Source: a virus (lineage: Duplodnaviria > Heunggongvirae > Uroviricota > Caudoviricetes). Taken from it: a DNA stretch of 39,229 bases. A model generated the notes under the pieces. That model was not told the DNA's origin. It did no database searches and saw only the letters and a program-made list of their open reading frames with translations. Position numbers and translations under genes: made by a program. Shown one piece after another: positions 4,853 through 34,210 of the stretch. The stretch is taken from IMG/VR virus record IMGVR_UViG_2537561824_000013. One strand, given 5' to 3'. Within the stretch, counting starts at the first letter, position 1. Each line of letters starts with the position of its first letter.

Positions 4853-5149
4853 TAAACTGCCCTCACAATGTAATTAAGTGCAATGCTACGGGGTCTGACA
4901 GTGATACCCTTCGCATACCCGCTTCTGATAGAGGTCAGAATAGTAGCCTGCATACCATTGTCTGACATTGCCACGACAGGATCGCTGAATGTTGTCCCGT
5001 CCGGCATTTTAAAGCTGCCCTCACGAAGGTCTGTAATGGAATCTTCATTGTTGAATCCCATGCCGACTATCCCCGAGGTTCCCGTAGTGTCCTGGTTATA
5101 ATAATCCAGCATTGCTGTTCTTAACAGCGTTGCCCCTTGTGCGGACAGC

Positions 5150-5370
5150 AACTTACGTCCTGTATCAACTTTGCGCCCGTCGTCCCATCCACGGATAAAC
5201 TCACCGCGTAAATCGGGAAGACGGAGGGTCGGGTAGACTCTGGCCAGAACAGGATATTGTTCTTTTGTAAAGGCGCGCCCGTCGCACTTTAACCAGCCTG
5301 CTGGCGGTGTGGCGGTGGGCCACGGAACAGGCACACCAACGGGTAGCGCCGAGCCTTCTCCTAAACCAAG
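5150..5370. repeat. Recombination repeat C inside the expressed fiber gene; inverted relative to A and B
   Basis: Reverse complement reads CTTGGTTTAGGAGAAGGCTCGGCGCT... and is nearly identical to repeats A and B over about 220 bp. Confidence 0.6.
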
Positions 5371-29192: not shown

Positions 29193-29296
29193 ATCGCCCC
29201 ACAGGAATGCGCTGTGAGCCGACCAAGGTTCAGTCAGTCTCGCGAGACCTGACCAGACTGCCATATTTTTTAATAATTGTAAAAGGCTTGCAGATT

Positions 29297-30061
29297 ATGA
29301 AAATGCAGACATTACCCATCGTGCCGTGGATTGGTGGCAAACGCCGCCTTGCAAAACACATTCTGCCGCTGTTTCCGGCGCATGAATGTTATGTGGAGCC
29401 GTTTTGTGGGGCAGCAGCGCTCTATTTTCTTAAGACACCCGGCAAGATCGAAGTCATCAATGATATCAACGGTGAACTGGTGAATCTGTACCGGGTGGTA
29501 AAGCATCACCTGGAAGAATTTGTCCGCCAGTTCAAATGGGCGCTGGTCAGCCGTCAGATCTACAAATGGCTGCAGATCACCCCGGAAGAAACACTGACGG
29601 ATATCCAGCGTGCGGCACGGTTCTACTACCTTCAGAAGCAGGCGTTTGGCGGCAAGGTGGCAGAGCACAGCTTCGGTACCTCCACCACATCCCCGCCACG
29701 CTTCAACCTGCTACGTATTGAAGAAGAACTGTCAGCGGCACACCTGCGGCTTTCCAGAACAGTCATAGAACACATGGACTGGCAACAGTGCATTGAGCGT
29801 TATGATCGTCCGCACACGCTGTTCTACTGCGACCCACCGTACCTGGGTACGGAAGGCTATGGTGTGGATTTTCCTGAAGGGAACTACTCGCGGCTGGCAG
29901 AGCTGGCCCGGTGCATCAGAGGAAAAATGATAATTTCGGTGAACGACATCCCGCAGATGCGCGAGGTGTTCACTGGACTGAACATACAGACAGTGAATAT
30001 CAACTACAGTCTGGCGGGTAAACCCACGCCGCGCCGTGAACTGCTAATCTGCAACTTCTGA
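29297..30061 (+). CDS. DNA adenine methyltransferase, Dam-like (D12 class N6-adenine MTase)
   Basis: ATG at 29297; product MKMQTLPIVPWIGGKRRLAKHILP... has the Dam-type N-terminus, an AdoMet motif (EPFCGAAALYF) and the catalytic DPPY motif; specificity cannot be read from sequence. Confidence 0.85.
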   Translation: MKMQTLPIVPWIGGKRRLAKHILPLFPAHECYVEPFCGAAALYFLKTPGKIEVINDINGELVNLYRVVKHHLEEFVRQFKWALVSRQIYKWLQITPEETLTDIQRAARFYYLQKQAFGGKVAEHSFGTSTTSPPRFNLLRIEEELSAAHLRLSRTVIEHMDWQQCIERYDRPHTLFYCDPPYLGTEGYGVDFPEGNYSRLAELARCIRGKMIISVNDIPQMREVFTGLNIQTVNINYSLAGKPTPRRELLICNF

Positions 30062-30068
30062 AACAAAA

Positions 30069-30091
30069 CCGGAAAGCACAATGCTTTCCGG
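30069..30091 (-). terminator. Intrinsic terminator for the repressor transcript (also sits just after the methyltransferase gene)
   Basis: CCGGAAAGCA caa TGCTTTCCGG is a 10-bp stem; on the minus strand it is followed by TTTTGTTT. Confidence 0.55.
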
Positions 30092-30177
30092 TAAACCAAA
30101 CAACTTCCACTATGTCACTGGCGATGTTTTCTGAAAGCATCCAGATCAACCACCTGTCCTTTGTGTCCGGGTCAGTA

Positions 30178-30534
30178 TCAGCCTGCGATTTTTCCTGGTT
30201 TTGGCTGAGTATAGAATCGCCCAATCTCAAGAAATGAGCGTTGTTGGTCTGGTGTCATGTCGTCAAAAGTATCTATTAGTTTTTGTTTTTCTGGGGAAAT
30301 TTGATTCTGGTTTCTAGTCATACCATCTGTGCTCATTCCAGTGAGCAACCAATTTACATCAACATTAAACTCTTGATGCATCTTTAACAGAAACTCCCCT
30401 CCAGGCATCGCCTTTCCATTTTCAATCTGACTGATACCACCATTAGAAATACCTAAACGAGCTGCAAATTCTCTCTGGTTCAACCCTGCTTTCTTCCTCA
30501 CAGAAATAACGCGCTCTCCTATATCTTTGCTCAT
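30178..30534 (-). CDS. Prophage immunity repressor, XRE-family HTH protein
   Basis: 118-aa ORF divergent from the early operon; HTH segment LNQREFAARLGISNGGISQIENGK; its start codon lies inside an operator half-site. Confidence 0.8.
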   Translation of the reverse strand: MSKDIGERVISVRKKAGLNQREFAARLGISNGGISQIENGKAMPGGEFLLKMHQEFNVDVNWLLTGMSTDGMTRNQNQISPEKQKLIDTFDDMTPDQQRSFLEIGRFYTQPKPGKIAG

Positions 30535-30575
30535 AAAAGTGAATCTCTATCTTGATATGCTCATAATTATGAGCA
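30528..30575. promoter_or_regulatory. Candidate operator/divergent promoter region between the repressor and the early operon
   Basis: Perfect 18-bp palindrome TGCTCATAATTATGAGCA at 30558-30575 plus an extra half-site TGCTCATAA at 30528-30536 overlapping the repressor ATG. Confidence 0.55.
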
Positions 30576-30627
30576 ATAATCTAACACATATAAGGCAAAC
30601 ATCATTGCATCAACAAAGGAGACAACG

Positions 30628-30816
30628 ATGACTGCAGAACAAGTCAAAGCTCTCTTCCGCCAGCGCGGGATCACTTTCACCCGCTGGGCAGAAGAAAACG
30701 GCTACAACCGCAATGAGGTATACCGCGTTCTCAACGGGCAGACCAAAGCCCGTTACGGTAAATCCCATGAAATCGCCGTGAAGTTGGGACTGAAATCAAC
30801 AGCTCAGGCGGCCTAA
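30628..30816 (+). CDS. Small DNA-binding early regulator (functional position of Mu Ner / lambda Cro)
   Basis: ATG at 30628 with AAAGGAGA upstream; 62-aa product with an HTH-like segment (YNRNEVYRVLNGQTKARYG); first gene of the rightward operon opposite the repressor. Confidence 0.55.
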   Translation: MTAEQVKALFRQRGITFTRWAEENGYNRNEVYRVLNGQTKARYGKSHEIAVKLGLKSTAQAA

Positions 30817-30862
30817 ATATTTTGAGTCTTTGTAAAAGGTTATCACATATCGCAAAAGAGGT

Positions 30863-31177
30863 ATGCAGATGAGTAAGACGAATGTTTCAAGCTCCGGCAG
30901 TCGCATCCTCCGGGTACTCAAAGCGCTGCGCGGTCATGCCCTGAACGGTATTTCTAACGGTGAACTGGCGACAGCACTGCACGAGTCACCGGCAAACATC
31001 AACCGGGCACTCAACACCCTCATTGAAGAAGGGCTGGCTCTGAAACTGGAGAACGGACGTTTTGCACCGGGCATCCAGTTACTGCAGATCGCCATGGCCC
31101 ACAGTAACGAGATGGCACGTGCACAGGATCGTATTAACGAAATTAACCAACGTGTCATTTCAGGTAGTCGTTTGTAA
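30863..31177 (+). CDS. Putative winged-helix DNA-binding protein
   Basis: 104-aa ORF with ATG at 30863; HTH-like segment ISNGELATALHESPANINRALNTLIEEGL. Confidence 0.45.
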   Translation: MQMSKTNVSSSGSRILRVLKALRGHALNGISNGELATALHESPANINRALNTLIEEGLALKLENGRFAPGIQLLQIAMAHSNEMARAQDRINEINQRVISGSRL

Positions 31178-31187
31178 GGAGTAATCA

Positions 31188-32108
31188 ATGGGACGTACCA
31201 AATCACCGATTAACACTGAACTGAACGCCGATGTACCGCTGTCGGATGATCTCAACGTCAGCCTGAATGCCATGACACAGCATCGCATGGAGATCATGCA
31301 GCAGTTTGGTGATGGACTGCCTTATGAACGTGAACGCATCGTTCACGAAGCACGTTTTTATATGGCGCAGAGTGCTGAATCTATGTTGGAAGCGGGTAAG
31401 CGGCTGATCATCTTAAAAGAAAATGAACCGCATGGTGATTTCACAAATATTCTGGAAAACGACCTCGGATTAGCACCACAGGTAGCTCGTCGCATGATGC
31501 AGGCCAGCGTGAAATTTCTCGGCAATGGAGATGAACAGCCAAAACGCTCAGCGCTGAGCGTTTTGGGAAAAACCAAGTTATATGAACTGATGGTTCTGGA
31601 TGACGAAGAACTCGACGCATTAGCTGATGGTGGAACCGTCGCCGGTGCAACGCTTGATGATATTGATCGCATGACCAGCCGCGAACTGAAGGCCGCCCTG
31701 CGTGAAGCGCGCGAAACCAACGCAGCTCAGCAACAGGTGCTTGCCGGAAAGGACGAAAAAATCAACGAACTGGCCACAAAACTGGAGAAGAAATCGCGCC
31801 TGCAACCTCCGCCGCCAGACGAAGAACTGAAAAAATTGCGGGCGGAAGTGACGGCATTAGCGGTTGAGGCCGAATCGGCTATCGCCGTCCGGCTGTCCAG
31901 TGTTTTTGAGACCCTGTGTGAATACTGCACCAAAAACATGATCGATACCCCCAGAGATTTCATGGCCGGTCTGGTCTGCCAGATTGAACGCAGTGTTCAT
32001 GCATTACGTGAGACGTTTGACCTTGAGGCCGCTCCATCGGGTAACGATGCCCCCGCCTGGCTGACCGAACCGGAACCTGAAATCAACCGACCGGAGGATA
32101 TGCAGTAA
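31188..32108 (+). CDS. Hypothetical early protein (306 aa)
   Basis: ATG at 31188 with TAAGGAG upstream; acidic helical protein; no family recognised. Confidence 0.5.
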   Translation: MGRTKSPINTELNADVPLSDDLNVSLNAMTQHRMEIMQQFGDGLPYERERIVHEARFYMAQSAESMLEAGKRLIILKENEPHGDFTNILENDLGLAPQVARRMMQASVKFLGNGDEQPKRSALSVLGKTKLYELMVLDDEELDALADGGTVAGATLDDIDRMTSRELKAALREARETNAAQQQVLAGKDEKINELATKLEKKSRLQPPPPDEELKKLRAEVTALAVEAESAIAVRLSSVFETLCEYCTKNMIDTPRDFMAGLVCQIERSVHALRETFDLEAAPSGNDAPAWLTEPEPEINRPEDMQ

Positions 32109-32425
32109 TGAATACGAATAACACACAAAATACCCTGATGGACAGCCCGGAGGCACTGGGGCACGCACTGTGTAATCTGCTGCCGGAGATGGTGCAGGGT
32201 TTCCGCGTGGTGACCCCTTCCGGTGAAATCTGCGTACCCGCACAGGAGACGCACCCGTTTGTACTGACGATGGAGGTGATGCTGATGCAGCAGATAAGAC
32301 GTCTGCAGAATCAGTCAGCATTACGCCCGGTAGTTGCACCGCAACCGGTAAATACCGTGGTGAAAACCTGCGATGGCGAAACACTGTGCGACCTCGCCAG
32401 AAAAATTGCCGCCAGAATCGGATAA
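32108..32425 (+). CDS. Hypothetical early protein (105 aa)
   Basis: ATG at 32108 in a TAATG overlap with the preceding stop. Confidence 0.45.
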   Translation: MNTNNTQNTLMDSPEALGHALCNLLPEMVQGFRVVTPSGEICVPAQETHPFVLTMEVMLMQQIRRLQNQSALRPVVAPQPVNTVVKTCDGETLCDLARKIAARIG

Positions 32426-32440
32426 CAGGGAAGACAAGCT

Positions 32441-34210
32441 ATGACCCCGGCACTGACTGAAAAACTGGTTGAAACAGCCCGCGCGGCACGTGACGCGGGG
32501 CATGGTAAACGCGGTGCAATATACGACGCTGCCTGTGCTGAACTTGGCATGTCCCGCGCCACTCTGCTGCGCAGGCTGAAGGAGGTATCTGTGACTGATA
32601 AACGCAAAAAACGCGCCGATGCCGGGCGCAGCGCCCTGACCCGCGACGAAGCCGCGCTGATATCTGCCACACTGCGTGAGGCCACCCGCAAGAACGGTAA
32701 GCGTCTCTATTCCATCGCAGATGCAGTGGAAACCCTGCGGGCTAACGGCTTTATCACCGCAGGCAGAACAGATGAAACCACCAGTGAGTTTTTCCCGTTG
32801 TCTGAAGATGCCATCAGCCGTGCTCTGCGTAACTATGGCCTGCACCCGGAACAACTGGATGCCCCTGCACCACATACCGAAGTGGCCAGTCTGCATCCCA
32901 ATCATGTCTGGCAGATTGACGCCTCACTCTGCACGCTTTACTACCTGAGCAATGGACATAAAGGGCTGCAGGTGATGGACAGCGCGAAGTTCTACAAGAA
33001 CAAGCCCGCTAACCTTGCCCGTATCGCCAGTGACCGCGTGTGGAGTTACGAGATTACCGACCATGCCAGCGGCTGGATTTACGTTGAGTATGTGACGGGC
33101 GCGGAATCAGGTGAGAACCTGTGTTCTGTGCTTATCAACGCCATGCAGGAGCGTGGCGGCGCAGACGTGCTGCACGGCGTGCCGAAAATACTCTATCTCG
33201 ACCCCGGCTCGGCAAACACCGCGGGTATGACGAAAAACATGTGCCGCTCACTGGGCATCGACCTGATAGCGCACAAGCCGCATAACGCCCGCGCCACCGG
33301 ACAGGTGGAAAAGGCGCGTGACATTATCGAACGCAAGCTGGAGCCGGGTCTGAAGTTCCGGCCGGTTCACAGTCTGGAAGAACTCAACGCGCTGGCCGCG
33401 AAATGGCGCAGCCACTTTAACGCCACGGCTGTTCACAGCCGCCACGGTAAAACCCGCACGGATATCTGGCTGAAGATTACTGCTGAGCAGCTGAAAAAAG
33501 CGCCTTCCGTTGAGGTATGTCGTGAACTGGCTGTGGCGGCACCAGAACTCCGCAAAGTCACGCCAAAACTTCGTGTCTCGTTCCGGGGCACTGAATTTGA
33601 CGTATCAACGGTACCGGGCGTACTGGTTGGTGAAAAACTGATGATTACCCGTAACCCATGGCGCAGCGATGTGGCACAGGTGGTTCTGACCGGTGAGGAC
33701 GGCCACGAGACGTTCTTCCTGGTCGAAGAGGTCAGAAAGAACGAGTTTGGCTTTGCTGAAGGCGCGGCGGTATTTGGCGAAAGTTACAAAGCCCTGCCGG
33801 AAACCCCGGCACAGATGGCGGCAAAAGAAACCGAAGCGCTGGTTACCGGTACAGACAACGCCGCAGATGCAGCCGCCGCACGCAAGGCGAAGGCGCTGCC
33901 GTTCGGCGGGCGGCTTGACCCGTATAAACATATCGACGACACCACACTTCCGGCCTATATGCCGAAGCGTGGTCAGGCCTCTGACGTACGCGGGCCGCGC
34001 ACTGAACAACGTCCCATGACTCATGTGGAGGCCGCGAAAGCCCTGCGCGATAAGTTCAGCGCCGACGGCCTTACCTGGACGCCGGAACATTACCGCCAGT
34101 TAACGGCACAGTACCCGGACGGCGTACCGGAAGCCGCACTGGATGAAGTCATGGCCACGCTGACCACACCGGCCCGCAGCAGTGTTATCAGCATTGTTAA
34201 CGGCAACTGA
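32441..34210 (+). CDS. DDE transposase (integrase-core/rve-type; functional equivalent of MuA)
   Basis: 589-aa ORF with ATG at 32441; N-terminal HTH, then candidate catalytic triad in ...VWQIDAS..., ...LYLDPGSAN... and ...TGQVEKA... with about 35 aa between the second D and the E; followed by the B-like ATPase. Confidence 0.85.
   Translation: MTPALTEKLVETARAARDAGHGKRGAIYDAACAELGMSRATLLRRLKEVSVTDKRKKRADAGRSALTRDEAALISATLREATRKNGKRLYSIADAVETLRANGFITAGRTDETTSEFFPLSEDAISRALRNYGLHPEQLDAPAPHTEVASLHPNHVWQIDASLCTLYYLSNGHKGLQVMDSAKFYKNKPANLARIASDRVWSYEITDHASGWIYVEYVTGAESGENLCSVLINAMQERGGADVLHGVPKILYLDPGSANTAGMTKNMCRSLGIDLIAHKPHNARATGQVEKARDIIERKLEPGLKFRPVHSLEELNALAAKWRSHFNATAVHSRHGKTRTDIWLKITAEQLKKAPSVEVCRELAVAAPELRKVTPKLRVSFRGTEFDVSTVPGVLVGEKLMITRNPWRSDVAQVVLTGEDGHETFFLVEEVRKNEFGFAEGAAVFGESYKALPETPAQMAAKETEALVTGTDNAADAAAARKAKALPFGGRLDPYKHIDDTTLPAYMPKRGQASDVRGPRTEQRPMTHVEAAKALRDKFSADGLTWTPEHYRQLTAQYPDGVPEAALDEVMATLTTPARSSVISIVNGN

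Follow-up and report, generated by a model that had tools for sequence, protein, structure and literature searches.

Gene organization of the PhiKM immunity region

The window analyzed here is a 39,229-nucleotide stretch of tailed-phage DNA (IMG/VR record IMGVR_UViG_2537561824_000013), and the subject of this report is the putative immunity switch that lies in it between two divergent genes, a repressor gene and a ner-like gene. Positions 30100 to 31200 of the window were 100% identical to Escherichia phage PhiKM (PQ738613.1), a Bcepmuvirus from a uropathogenic E. coli source, and the prophage was present at ≥99% identity in 390 to 391 of 5,426 complete E. coli genomes, with JJ1887 and O25b:H4-ST131 strains among the carriers. 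The predicted immunity repressor gene (118 amino acids; positions 30178 to 30534, minus strand) points away from a ner-like, Cro-type first early gene (62 amino acids; 30628 to 30816, plus strand), and the divergent region from the repressor ATG to the ner-like ATG spans 93 bp (30535 to 30627). Rightward of the ner-like gene follow the gene for an IclR-type helix-turn-helix (HTH) protein (30863 to 31177), a DUF3102 gene (31188 to 32108), the gene for an rve-domain transposase, and Gam. The divergent gp17-like repressor gene, the gp16-family ner-like gene, the early transposase operon behind it, and the Bcepmuvirus taxonomy together correspond to the c-ner layout of BcepMu- and B3-type phages. 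The ner-like protein, a member of the BcepMu gp16 family, matched NCBIfam TIGR04111 at 97.4 bits (cutoff, 34) and phrog_925 at 3.8e-33, and in B3-like phages, similar genes carry the annotation Ner-like antirepressor.

The repressor combines an N-terminal HTH domain of the 434 cI/P22 C2 type with a C-terminal module of approximately 40 amino acids. Its HTH matched Pfam HTH_3 (4.6e-15; 55.8 bits; cutoff, 23) and Phage_CI_repr (1.8e-5; 25.4 bits; cutoff, 22), which places the N-terminal domain in the XRE/434-cI-type class, and its sequence matches in the PDB were the N-terminal domains of the 434 repressor (3e-8) and P22 C2 (1e-5), the nearest relatives of solved structure, and SinR (2.6e-4; residues 4 to 105). 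The protein was also homologous to B3 ORF18 (1e-8; residues 3 to 102) and BcepMu gp17 (7e-5), the annotated repressors occupying the same position in those phages. No Peptidase_S24 domain was found in the 118-amino-acid protein by Pfam, which sets it outside the autocleavable LexA/lambda-cI class; induction therefore cannot go via RecA-stimulated autocleavage. A Pfam search of the C-terminal 47 amino acids gave no match even at E ≤ 10. The NCBIfam scores for RstR (NF041951; 2.8e-10; 40.4 bits against a cutoff of 80) and DicA (NF007257; 5.6e-10; residues 3 to 101; 39.2 bits against a cutoff of 101) were too low for membership in either family, and the XRE HTH domain and 18-bp dyad operators set the repressor apart from the Mu-type c repressors.

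A putative palindromic operator in the predicted early promoter

A single sigma70-like promoter was found in the region from 30000 to 31000. This predicted early promoter, Pe, has the form TTGATA-17-AATAAT, lies on the plus strand, and faces the ner-like gene; by promoter scan, its −35 hexamer (TTGATA; 30552 to 30557) and −10 hexamer (AATAAT; 30575 to 30580) gave 10 of 12 matches with a 17-bp spacer. The predicted main operator, O1 (30558 to 30575), fills this spacer and is a perfect 18-bp palindrome, TGCTCATAATTATGAGCA, identical to its own reverse complement. The −10 hexamer begins a block, (A/C/T)ATAATCTAWCACA..., that is conserved across immunity types. An earlier sequence-only reading of the window had described this palindrome in the 93-bp divergent region, with every coordinate correct, and had proposed that a repressor bound to it blocks the early promoter. 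The proposal gains from the placement of the palindrome in the spacer of the only sigma70-like promoter and from the use of the same slot in nine immunity types, and repression of Pe through occupancy of O1 is the best-supported step of the proposed mechanism.

An 18-bp palindrome alone is not significant in a window of this size, because 19% of dinucleotide shuffles contained a perfect palindrome of at least 18 bp somewhere; the claim therefore rests on position, extra copies, and comparative data. Inside one 93-bp divergent region, a perfect 18-bp palindrome is expected approximately 5e-4 times (76 positions × ~0.27^9), and an extra exact copy of its 9-mer, TGCTCATAA, within 200 bp is expected approximately 0.001 to 0.002 times by chance. 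Exact copies of the 9-mer in the 39-kb window numbered three (30528 and 30558, plus 30567 on the opposite strand). The copies with one mismatch elsewhere in the window (11, versus 8 expected) were not meaningful.

Immunity types and an exchangeable cassette

With the ner-like protein as an anchor, 144 further loci were collected, giving approximately 150 in total (designated by L numbers below), and duplicates were removed. The enterobacterial loci fell into at least nine immunity types, each with its own 16- to 18-bp near-palindrome in the same promoter slot. In each type, a TTGxxx or TTTACA hexamer was followed at a 16- to 17-bp spacing, occupied by the type-specific palindrome (for example, TATCCCATTTATGGGATA, TATACACGTTTGTGTATA, TGTCTAATTTTTTAGACA, TGAGAACAATAGTTCTCA, TGTGATGTATTGATCACA, or GGTTGAAAATTTTCTACC), by the conserved block that starts with the −10 hexamer. 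A good −35 hexamer stood at this distance in every type, although the hexamer itself is part of the variable cassette. In seven types, 7 to 9 of the 9 base pairs of the operator were palindromic, with P ≤ 0.0025 for each against all 18-mers of its own locus.

Comparison by blastn with twelve relatives placed the right boundary of the variable segment at 30574 to 30576 in 9 of 10 heteroimmune comparisons and the left boundary at 30267 to 30302, within the repressor gene. Likewise, in other E. coli genomes with related prophages, similarity began at window position 30576 (query 399), the first base past the palindrome. The exchangeable immunity cassette (approximately 30303 to 30575) contains the repressor DNA-binding domain (codons ~1 to 77), two further predicted operators that are described below (O3 and O2), the −35 hexamer of Pe, and O1; outside it, and common to the types, are the C-terminal ~40 amino acids of the repressor and everything rightward from the −10 hexamer.

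The sequence of O1 followed the repressor DNA-binding domain. Pairs of loci with at least 60% identity in this domain shared approximately 15 of 18 operator bases, versus approximately 7.5 of 18 for other pairs, and the Spearman coefficient between O1 identity and Ner identity was 0.004. Four loci (L071, L076, L079, and L080) encoded a Ner protein 100% identical to that of the window and yet differed from it in both repressor and operator. In type D, repressors at 66% identity shared one O1 sequence, and the A' relatives (L099 and L008) had an O1 identical to that of the window. In the A'' relatives (L109 and L113), the TGCTCA/TGAGCA arms were kept and the center was changed to AAATAA (TGCTCAaaataaTGAGCA). 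Such retention of the operator within a type fits half-site recognition by an HTH dimer and speaks against Ner, the transposase, or a hairpin as the cause of the palindrome. The further proposal of the sequence-only reading, that the palindrome defines the immunity specificity of this phage, is strengthened by a swap boundary at 30575/30576 and by an operator that tracks the repressor domain and not Ner.

Type E (L080, L083, L095, L123, and L017) had a different arrangement. Its operator, GGTGAG-N5-CTGCACC, and a second copy, TGTGAGTTTTTCTGCACT, lay upstream of ner as two copies, in direct orientation, of a dyad that is asymmetric or imperfect (5 of 9 palindromic pairs) and no clean palindrome, which suggests that the type E repressor uses a different half-site spacing.

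The C-terminal module (30178 to 30302; ...SPEKQKLIDTFDDMTPDQQRSFLEIGRFYTQPKPGKIAG) showed 89 to 96% DNA identity with heteroimmune E. coli relatives of the types represented by L002, L003, and L004, and the DNA-binding domains of those types were unrelated despite the common module. The module ends in ...KPGKIAG, ...KPGKLAG, or ...KPSKFAG. One may speculate that it serves as an oligomerization domain or as a shared antirepressor or protease target for induction.

A weaker operator predicted at the repressor start codon

A second predicted operator, O2 (30528 to 30545; TGCTCAtaaaagTGAatc), has the same 6-N6-6 geometry (TGCTCA-N6-TGAATC) and covers the repressor start codon (CAT; 30532 to 30534). 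Its left arm is perfect and its right arm matches at 3 of 6 positions; the overall match to O1, 12 of 18, had a P value of 0.007 when compared with random 40-nt segments taken from this locus. O2 starts 30 bp to the left of the O1 start, and TGCTCA-N6-TGAATC was kept in the A' and A'' relatives. The sequence-only reading had reported a third half-site, TGCTCATAA at 30528 to 30536, overlapping the repressor ATG. This copy is present and does lie over the start codon; it is not a lone half, as then supposed, but the strong half of a full, weak operator.

A second, weaker copy of O1 was likewise found in 12 of 14 operator clusters, in which the best match within 40 nt to the left of O1 scored 11 to 15 of 18. 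The offset of this copy was 29 to 34 bp to the left of O1 in 10 clusters, and P values per type, with random segments of the respective locus as the reference, ranged from <0.0005 to 0.03. In each case read by eye, the second site overlapped the repressor start codon or lay ≤4 nt away from it; types A, C, D, F, G, and I had it over the first codons, and types E and H had it in the 5' untranslated region (5' UTR). In BcepMu, an O1-like sequence, GGTAATCAAACGCATACC, follows TTGACA, and an inverted copy lies over the gp17 start; in B3, the O1-like sequence GGTGCAATATTTGGCACC is accompanied by AGTGATTTTTCTGTCACC over the GTG of ORF18. The extra site over the repressor start that had been proposed for this one phage is therefore a recurrent feature, seen at or near the start codon in BcepMu and B3 as well as in 12 of the 14 clusters. 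These comparisons suggest that O2 is a weaker operator and that its conserved feature is the overlap with the start of repressor translation and expression.

A distal operator predicted within the repressor gene

A third predicted site, O3 (30330 to 30347; TGCTCAttccagTGAGCA), lies inside the repressor gene over codons 63 to 69 (LLTGMS) and within the exchanged cassette. It has the arms of O1 in the same 6-N6-6 geometry; the operator set of the sequence-only reading, a palindrome plus a half-site, holds in both members and has to be enlarged by this site, which went unmentioned there. The start-to-start distances are 30 bp for O1-O2, 198 bp for O2-O3, and 228 bp for O1-O3. An exact 6-N6-6 site is expected 0.002 times per window and occurred in 0 of 300 shuffles.

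The O3 arms were unchanged at the same position in the A' and A'' relatives, and the central bases alone varied. Over the first 210 nt of the repressor gene, the A lineages differ by ~27%, with 78 variable positions, and of the 193 possible 6+6 windows in this segment, O3 was the only one without a variable arm position. Type C repressors also read WLLTG and encode the Leu-Leu pair with five different codon pairs, while all A lineages keep TTG CTC; since the Leu codons vary freely in type C, the protein motif does not explain the conservation of the O3 arms. Inside the repressor gene of type I (L128), a sequence at −259 independently matched the operator of that type at 16 of 18 positions.

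Candidate repressor promoter and early leader

A strict promoter scan of the minus strand gave no repressor promoter, and no distal repressor promoter was found by a simple scan of 30800 to 32500. A relaxed scan returned TGnTAGATT as the sole leftward promoter-like element whose location was shared by nearly all immunity types. In the window, this candidate repressor promoter, Pc, has the extended −10 element TGTTAGATT (30578 to 30586, minus strand), stands back to back with the −10 hexamer of Pe, and has its predicted start inside O1. [quoted passage not shown] A leaderless repressor transcript (GAGATT 7 nt before the ATG) was considered as well; it held in the A types and failed in the others, and it was not adopted. 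Because Pc is a prediction and not a mapped promoter, autoregulation is best called plausible. Under any layout of Pc, O2, together with O1, would lie between the promoter and the coding sequence or on the start, so binding should lower repressor expression.

On the other side of the switch, the early leader (30581 to 30627, plus strand) was conserved across all enterobacterial immunity types. It contains a GCAA-N6-TTGC inverted repeat (30595 to 30608) and the Shine-Dalgarno sequence AAGGAG (30616 to 30621). The inverted repeat reads GCAAACATCATTGC in the window and ACAAACATAGTTGT in L006, L125, and L131, a compensatory change from G:C to A:T, and it is longer in L132 (GCAAACTTATGTTTGC). By analogy with Mu Ner, the leader is the likely location of the target of the Ner-like protein, and the repeat is a candidate for its binding site or for a 5'-UTR hairpin. 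The motif TAWCACATAT at 30582 to 30591, just past the −10 hexamer of Pe, recurs at 30841 to 30850, within the 46 bp that separate the ner-like gene from the IclR-type HTH gene, where it may represent a second regulatory site.

Flanking features and annotation

A 28-bp perfect palindrome, CCAAAACGCTCAGCGCTGAGCGTTTTGG, was found at 31539 to 31566, within the DUF3102/phrog_1748 gene. Relatives (L004, L005, L011, L087/88, L128, and L137) had a palindrome with 13 to 14 of 14 pairs at the same place, with compensatory changes in the inner arms (CGGCAAGCGCTTGCCG, GCGACAACGTTGTCGC, and TGTGCCAGCGCTGGCACA), fixed outer CCAAAA/TTTTGG sequences, and changed amino acids. That the palindrome is kept through compensatory changes in spite of altered amino acids indicates selection on a DNA or RNA palindrome inside the gene, perhaps a hairpin or a site bound by a protein of covarying specificity. 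It was considered as a fourth operator, since it contains GCTCA...TGAGC, and was rejected on account of its N4 spacing and its variation independently of immunity type.

Approximately 86 nt past the repressor stop codon, the terminator scan returned a hairpin with a T-run (30068 to 30092, minus strand; 11-pair stem with 6 GC pairs). The gene for a D12-class (Dam-like) adenine methylase (29207 to 30061; Pfam, 8.7e-29) is convergent with the repressor gene, and the hairpin between the two genes has the look of a terminator that is bidirectional or shared by both. GATC is absent from the 93-bp switch region.

Positions 4884 to 5240 of PQ738613.1 (L001) correspond to window positions 30178 to 30534, and the repressor open reading frame (ORF) is unannotated in this PhiKM GenBank record, which instead has a 126-nt hypothetical coding sequence on the opposite strand overlapping the repressor 3' end. 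RefSeq E. coli genomes label the ORF a "helix-turn-helix domain-containing protein." For L005, RefSeq places the repressor start too far upstream, so that the annotated gene spans the operator and promoter; the true start is likely the GTG of VNFDSL.... A literature search on "PhiKM" returned unrelated papers only, and one on ST131 Mu-like prophages gave no relevant match.

Proposed switch and alternative explanations

We consider this region to be the immunity switch of the BcepMu-type prophage PhiKM, in which an HTH repressor would act on O1, O2, and O3 and an exchangeable cassette would set specificity, and we put the probability of this reading at roughly 0.85. The existence and non-randomness of the sites, their placement relative to the predicted promoters, their conservation, their covariation with the repressor domain, and the cassette boundaries were all obtained from the sequence. 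What we infer from them is the actual binding, the stoichiometry of the dimer, any cooperativity or looping, autoregulation, and what Ner does. In the proposed mechanism, a repressor dimer most likely binds TGCTCA-N6-TGAGCA sites. On O1 it would exclude RNA polymerase, so that the ner-like gene, the transposase gene, and the rest of the early operon stay silent, and a superinfecting phage with this immunity type would be silenced likewise. O2 probably fills at a higher repressor concentration or cooperatively with O1, with negative autoregulation as the result. O3 probably plays an auxiliary part, as a roadblock or through looping to O1 and O2 over ~200 to 230 bp; looping is a hypothesis drawn from phages 186, TP901-1, and lambda. 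The DNA-binding domain and the three sites would form one exchangeable cassette that sets immunity specificity.

Several points weigh against this account. The −10 and −35 hexamers of Pe are consensus matches only. The only conserved candidate for Pc would start inside O1, so that O1 would repress both promoters and the separate role of O2 would be blurred. The O1-O2 offsets vary from 29 to 34 bp, and this spread of approximately half a helical turn speaks against strict face-of-helix cooperativity. The first seven bases of O2 are partly fixed by the Met-Ser codons and its right arm matches at only 3 of 6 positions, and the comparative argument for O2 is therefore the stronger one; type B has no full O2, only a TGTCC half. 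Distal O3-like sites were found in two immunity types only, and the other types had none at the threshold used.

The last of these points bear on the most serious alternative, that O1 is the only real operator and that O2 and O3 are without a regulatory role, being either chance matches or by-products of coding (Met-Ser as ATGAGCA; Leu-Leu-Thr-Gly-x-Ser). ATG AGC A forces TGCTCAT, all A-type repressors start with Met-Ser, and WLLTG is a conserved protein motif; the poor right arm of O2, its absence from type B, and the lack of a detectable O3 in most types point the same way. Against this, most clusters again have a start-codon copy, although their sequences and N-terminal codons are unrelated, and in types E and H it is wholly 5' untranslated. 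Each site is expected only ~0.002 times by chance, and the synonymous positions of the O3 arms are fixed while 37% of neighboring positions vary and type C uses five Leu-Leu codon pairs. We therefore regard a switch with O1 as its sole operator as improbable, though less so than two other explanations. That the palindrome is bound not by the repressor but by the Ner/Cro-like early protein, or by another early regulator such as the IclR-type HTH protein (30863 to 31177), is suggested by gene order, with the ner-like gene directly downstream and a second HTH gene next, and by the precedent of Mu, in which Ner binds between the divergent promoters. This is very improbable in view of the loci with identical Ner proteins and different palindromes and repressors (L071, L076, L079, and L080), the lack of correlation between O1 identity and Ner identity (rho, 0.004) while O1 follows the repressor domain, and the fact that the block coconserved with Ner begins only past the palindrome. 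Slightly lower still is the probability that the palindrome is a structural DNA or RNA element (a cruciform, hairpin, or terminator) or a transposition enhancer bound by transposase. A perfect palindrome can extrude as a cruciform, and the operator region of Mu doubles as a transposition enhancer. The PhiKM palindrome, however, is AT-rich and has neither a loop nor a T-tract, unlike a terminator, and it lies upstream of the predicted early transcription start and so outside the early RNA. The sequence of the palindrome differs from one repressor domain to another, while the transposase region is similar across immunity types, and in A'' the center changes nonpalindromically while the arms are kept, as would be expected of half-site recognition by a protein and not of hairpin pairing. 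Repressor binding to the palindrome thus remains the favored explanation.

Comparison with known switches

The PhiKM switch resembles a lambdoid 434/P22-type immunity region set within a Mu-like gene order. It shares with 434 cI and P22 C2 a homologous N-terminal HTH, divergent repressor and cro-like genes, a repressor and operators that form an exchangeable immunity unit, and palindromic operators with conserved outer arms and a variable center; the P22 operators are 18 bp long. It differs from 434 and P22 in having no S24/LexA-type autocleavage domain, in having two proximal sites and not three in tandem, in having the main operator in the promoter spacer and one site inside the repressor gene, and in belonging to a transposable and not a lambdoid phage. 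Mu has the same order of a leftward repressor gene, a rightward ner gene, and then transposase genes. The Mu operators overlap both the early promoter and the signals for repressor expression, and the Mu repressor is negatively autoregulated. The DNA-binding domain of the Mu repressor, however, is a MuA-related winged helix, in contrast to the XRE HTH of PhiKM, and the Mu operators, which come with an IHF site, are clustered 11-bp repeats over ~200 bp, in contrast to discrete 18-bp dyads in a 93-bp spacer.

BcepMu and the Beetrevirus phages B3 and Fc02 have homologous repressor and ner-like proteins and a short divergent spacer and, in BcepMu and B3, the same layout of O1 in the spacer and O2 over the start; their operator sequences and immunity types differ from those of PhiKM. 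Fc02 uses the distal pC1 in lysogens, and PhiKM had no equivalent by simple scan. In Fc02, a B3-like phage, a temperature-sensitive mutant of the gene in the repressor position derepresses pE, genetic evidence that this gene confers immunity and represses pE (PMC9936078), and BcepMu gp17 and gp16 have been named as a repressor and a DNA-binding protein, respectively (PMC2628397). Operator sites for the BcepMu/B3 group were not defined in the literature searched, a search that lay outside the original BcepMu and B3 genome papers.

CTXphi RstR/ig-2 and E. coli DicA/dicC resemble the PhiKM system in having small XRE repressors without a protease domain. In the RstR system, heteroimmune phages differ jointly in the repressor gene and the operator region next to it, and the flanking sequences are conserved. 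The NCBIfam scores of the PhiKM repressor are nevertheless far below the cutoffs for both families, which belong to a filamentous phage and a cryptic lambdoid prophage, respectively. Distal operators a few hundred base pairs away, possibly in coding sequence, aid repression or autoregulation through repressor oligomers in several phages, as with FL/FR of 186 CI, OD of TP901-1 CI, and OL-OR of lambda. The predicted O3 of PhiKM differs from these in being only 198 to 228 bp away and in lying within the repressor's own gene.

Implications

This kind of switch is of a textbook type that, in the literature searched, had not been mapped previously for this phage group. The new points are modest; they are an operator apparently maintained inside the repressor coding sequence and a recombination boundary that falls exactly at the edge of the operator, at the last base of O1. 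A more far-reaching possibility, which we regard as doubtful at present, is that BcepMu/B3-type phages have a three-operator and possibly looped switch in which O3 is kept by selection at synonymous sites and the cassette is swapped onto a constant C-terminal module. If this is true, the constant module would be a common oligomerization and induction handle, for an antirepressor or protease, across heteroimmune phages. Annotation would gain as well, since some RefSeq repressor start codons run across the operator, and the approximately 10 repressor/operator pairs that nature provides on one scaffold could be used as orthogonal regulatory parts. Knowledge of the operator set and of the cassette would allow prediction of cross-immunity among BcepMu-like prophages of Enterobacteriaceae, engineering of derepressed or heteroimmune derivatives, and better annotation of these prophages.

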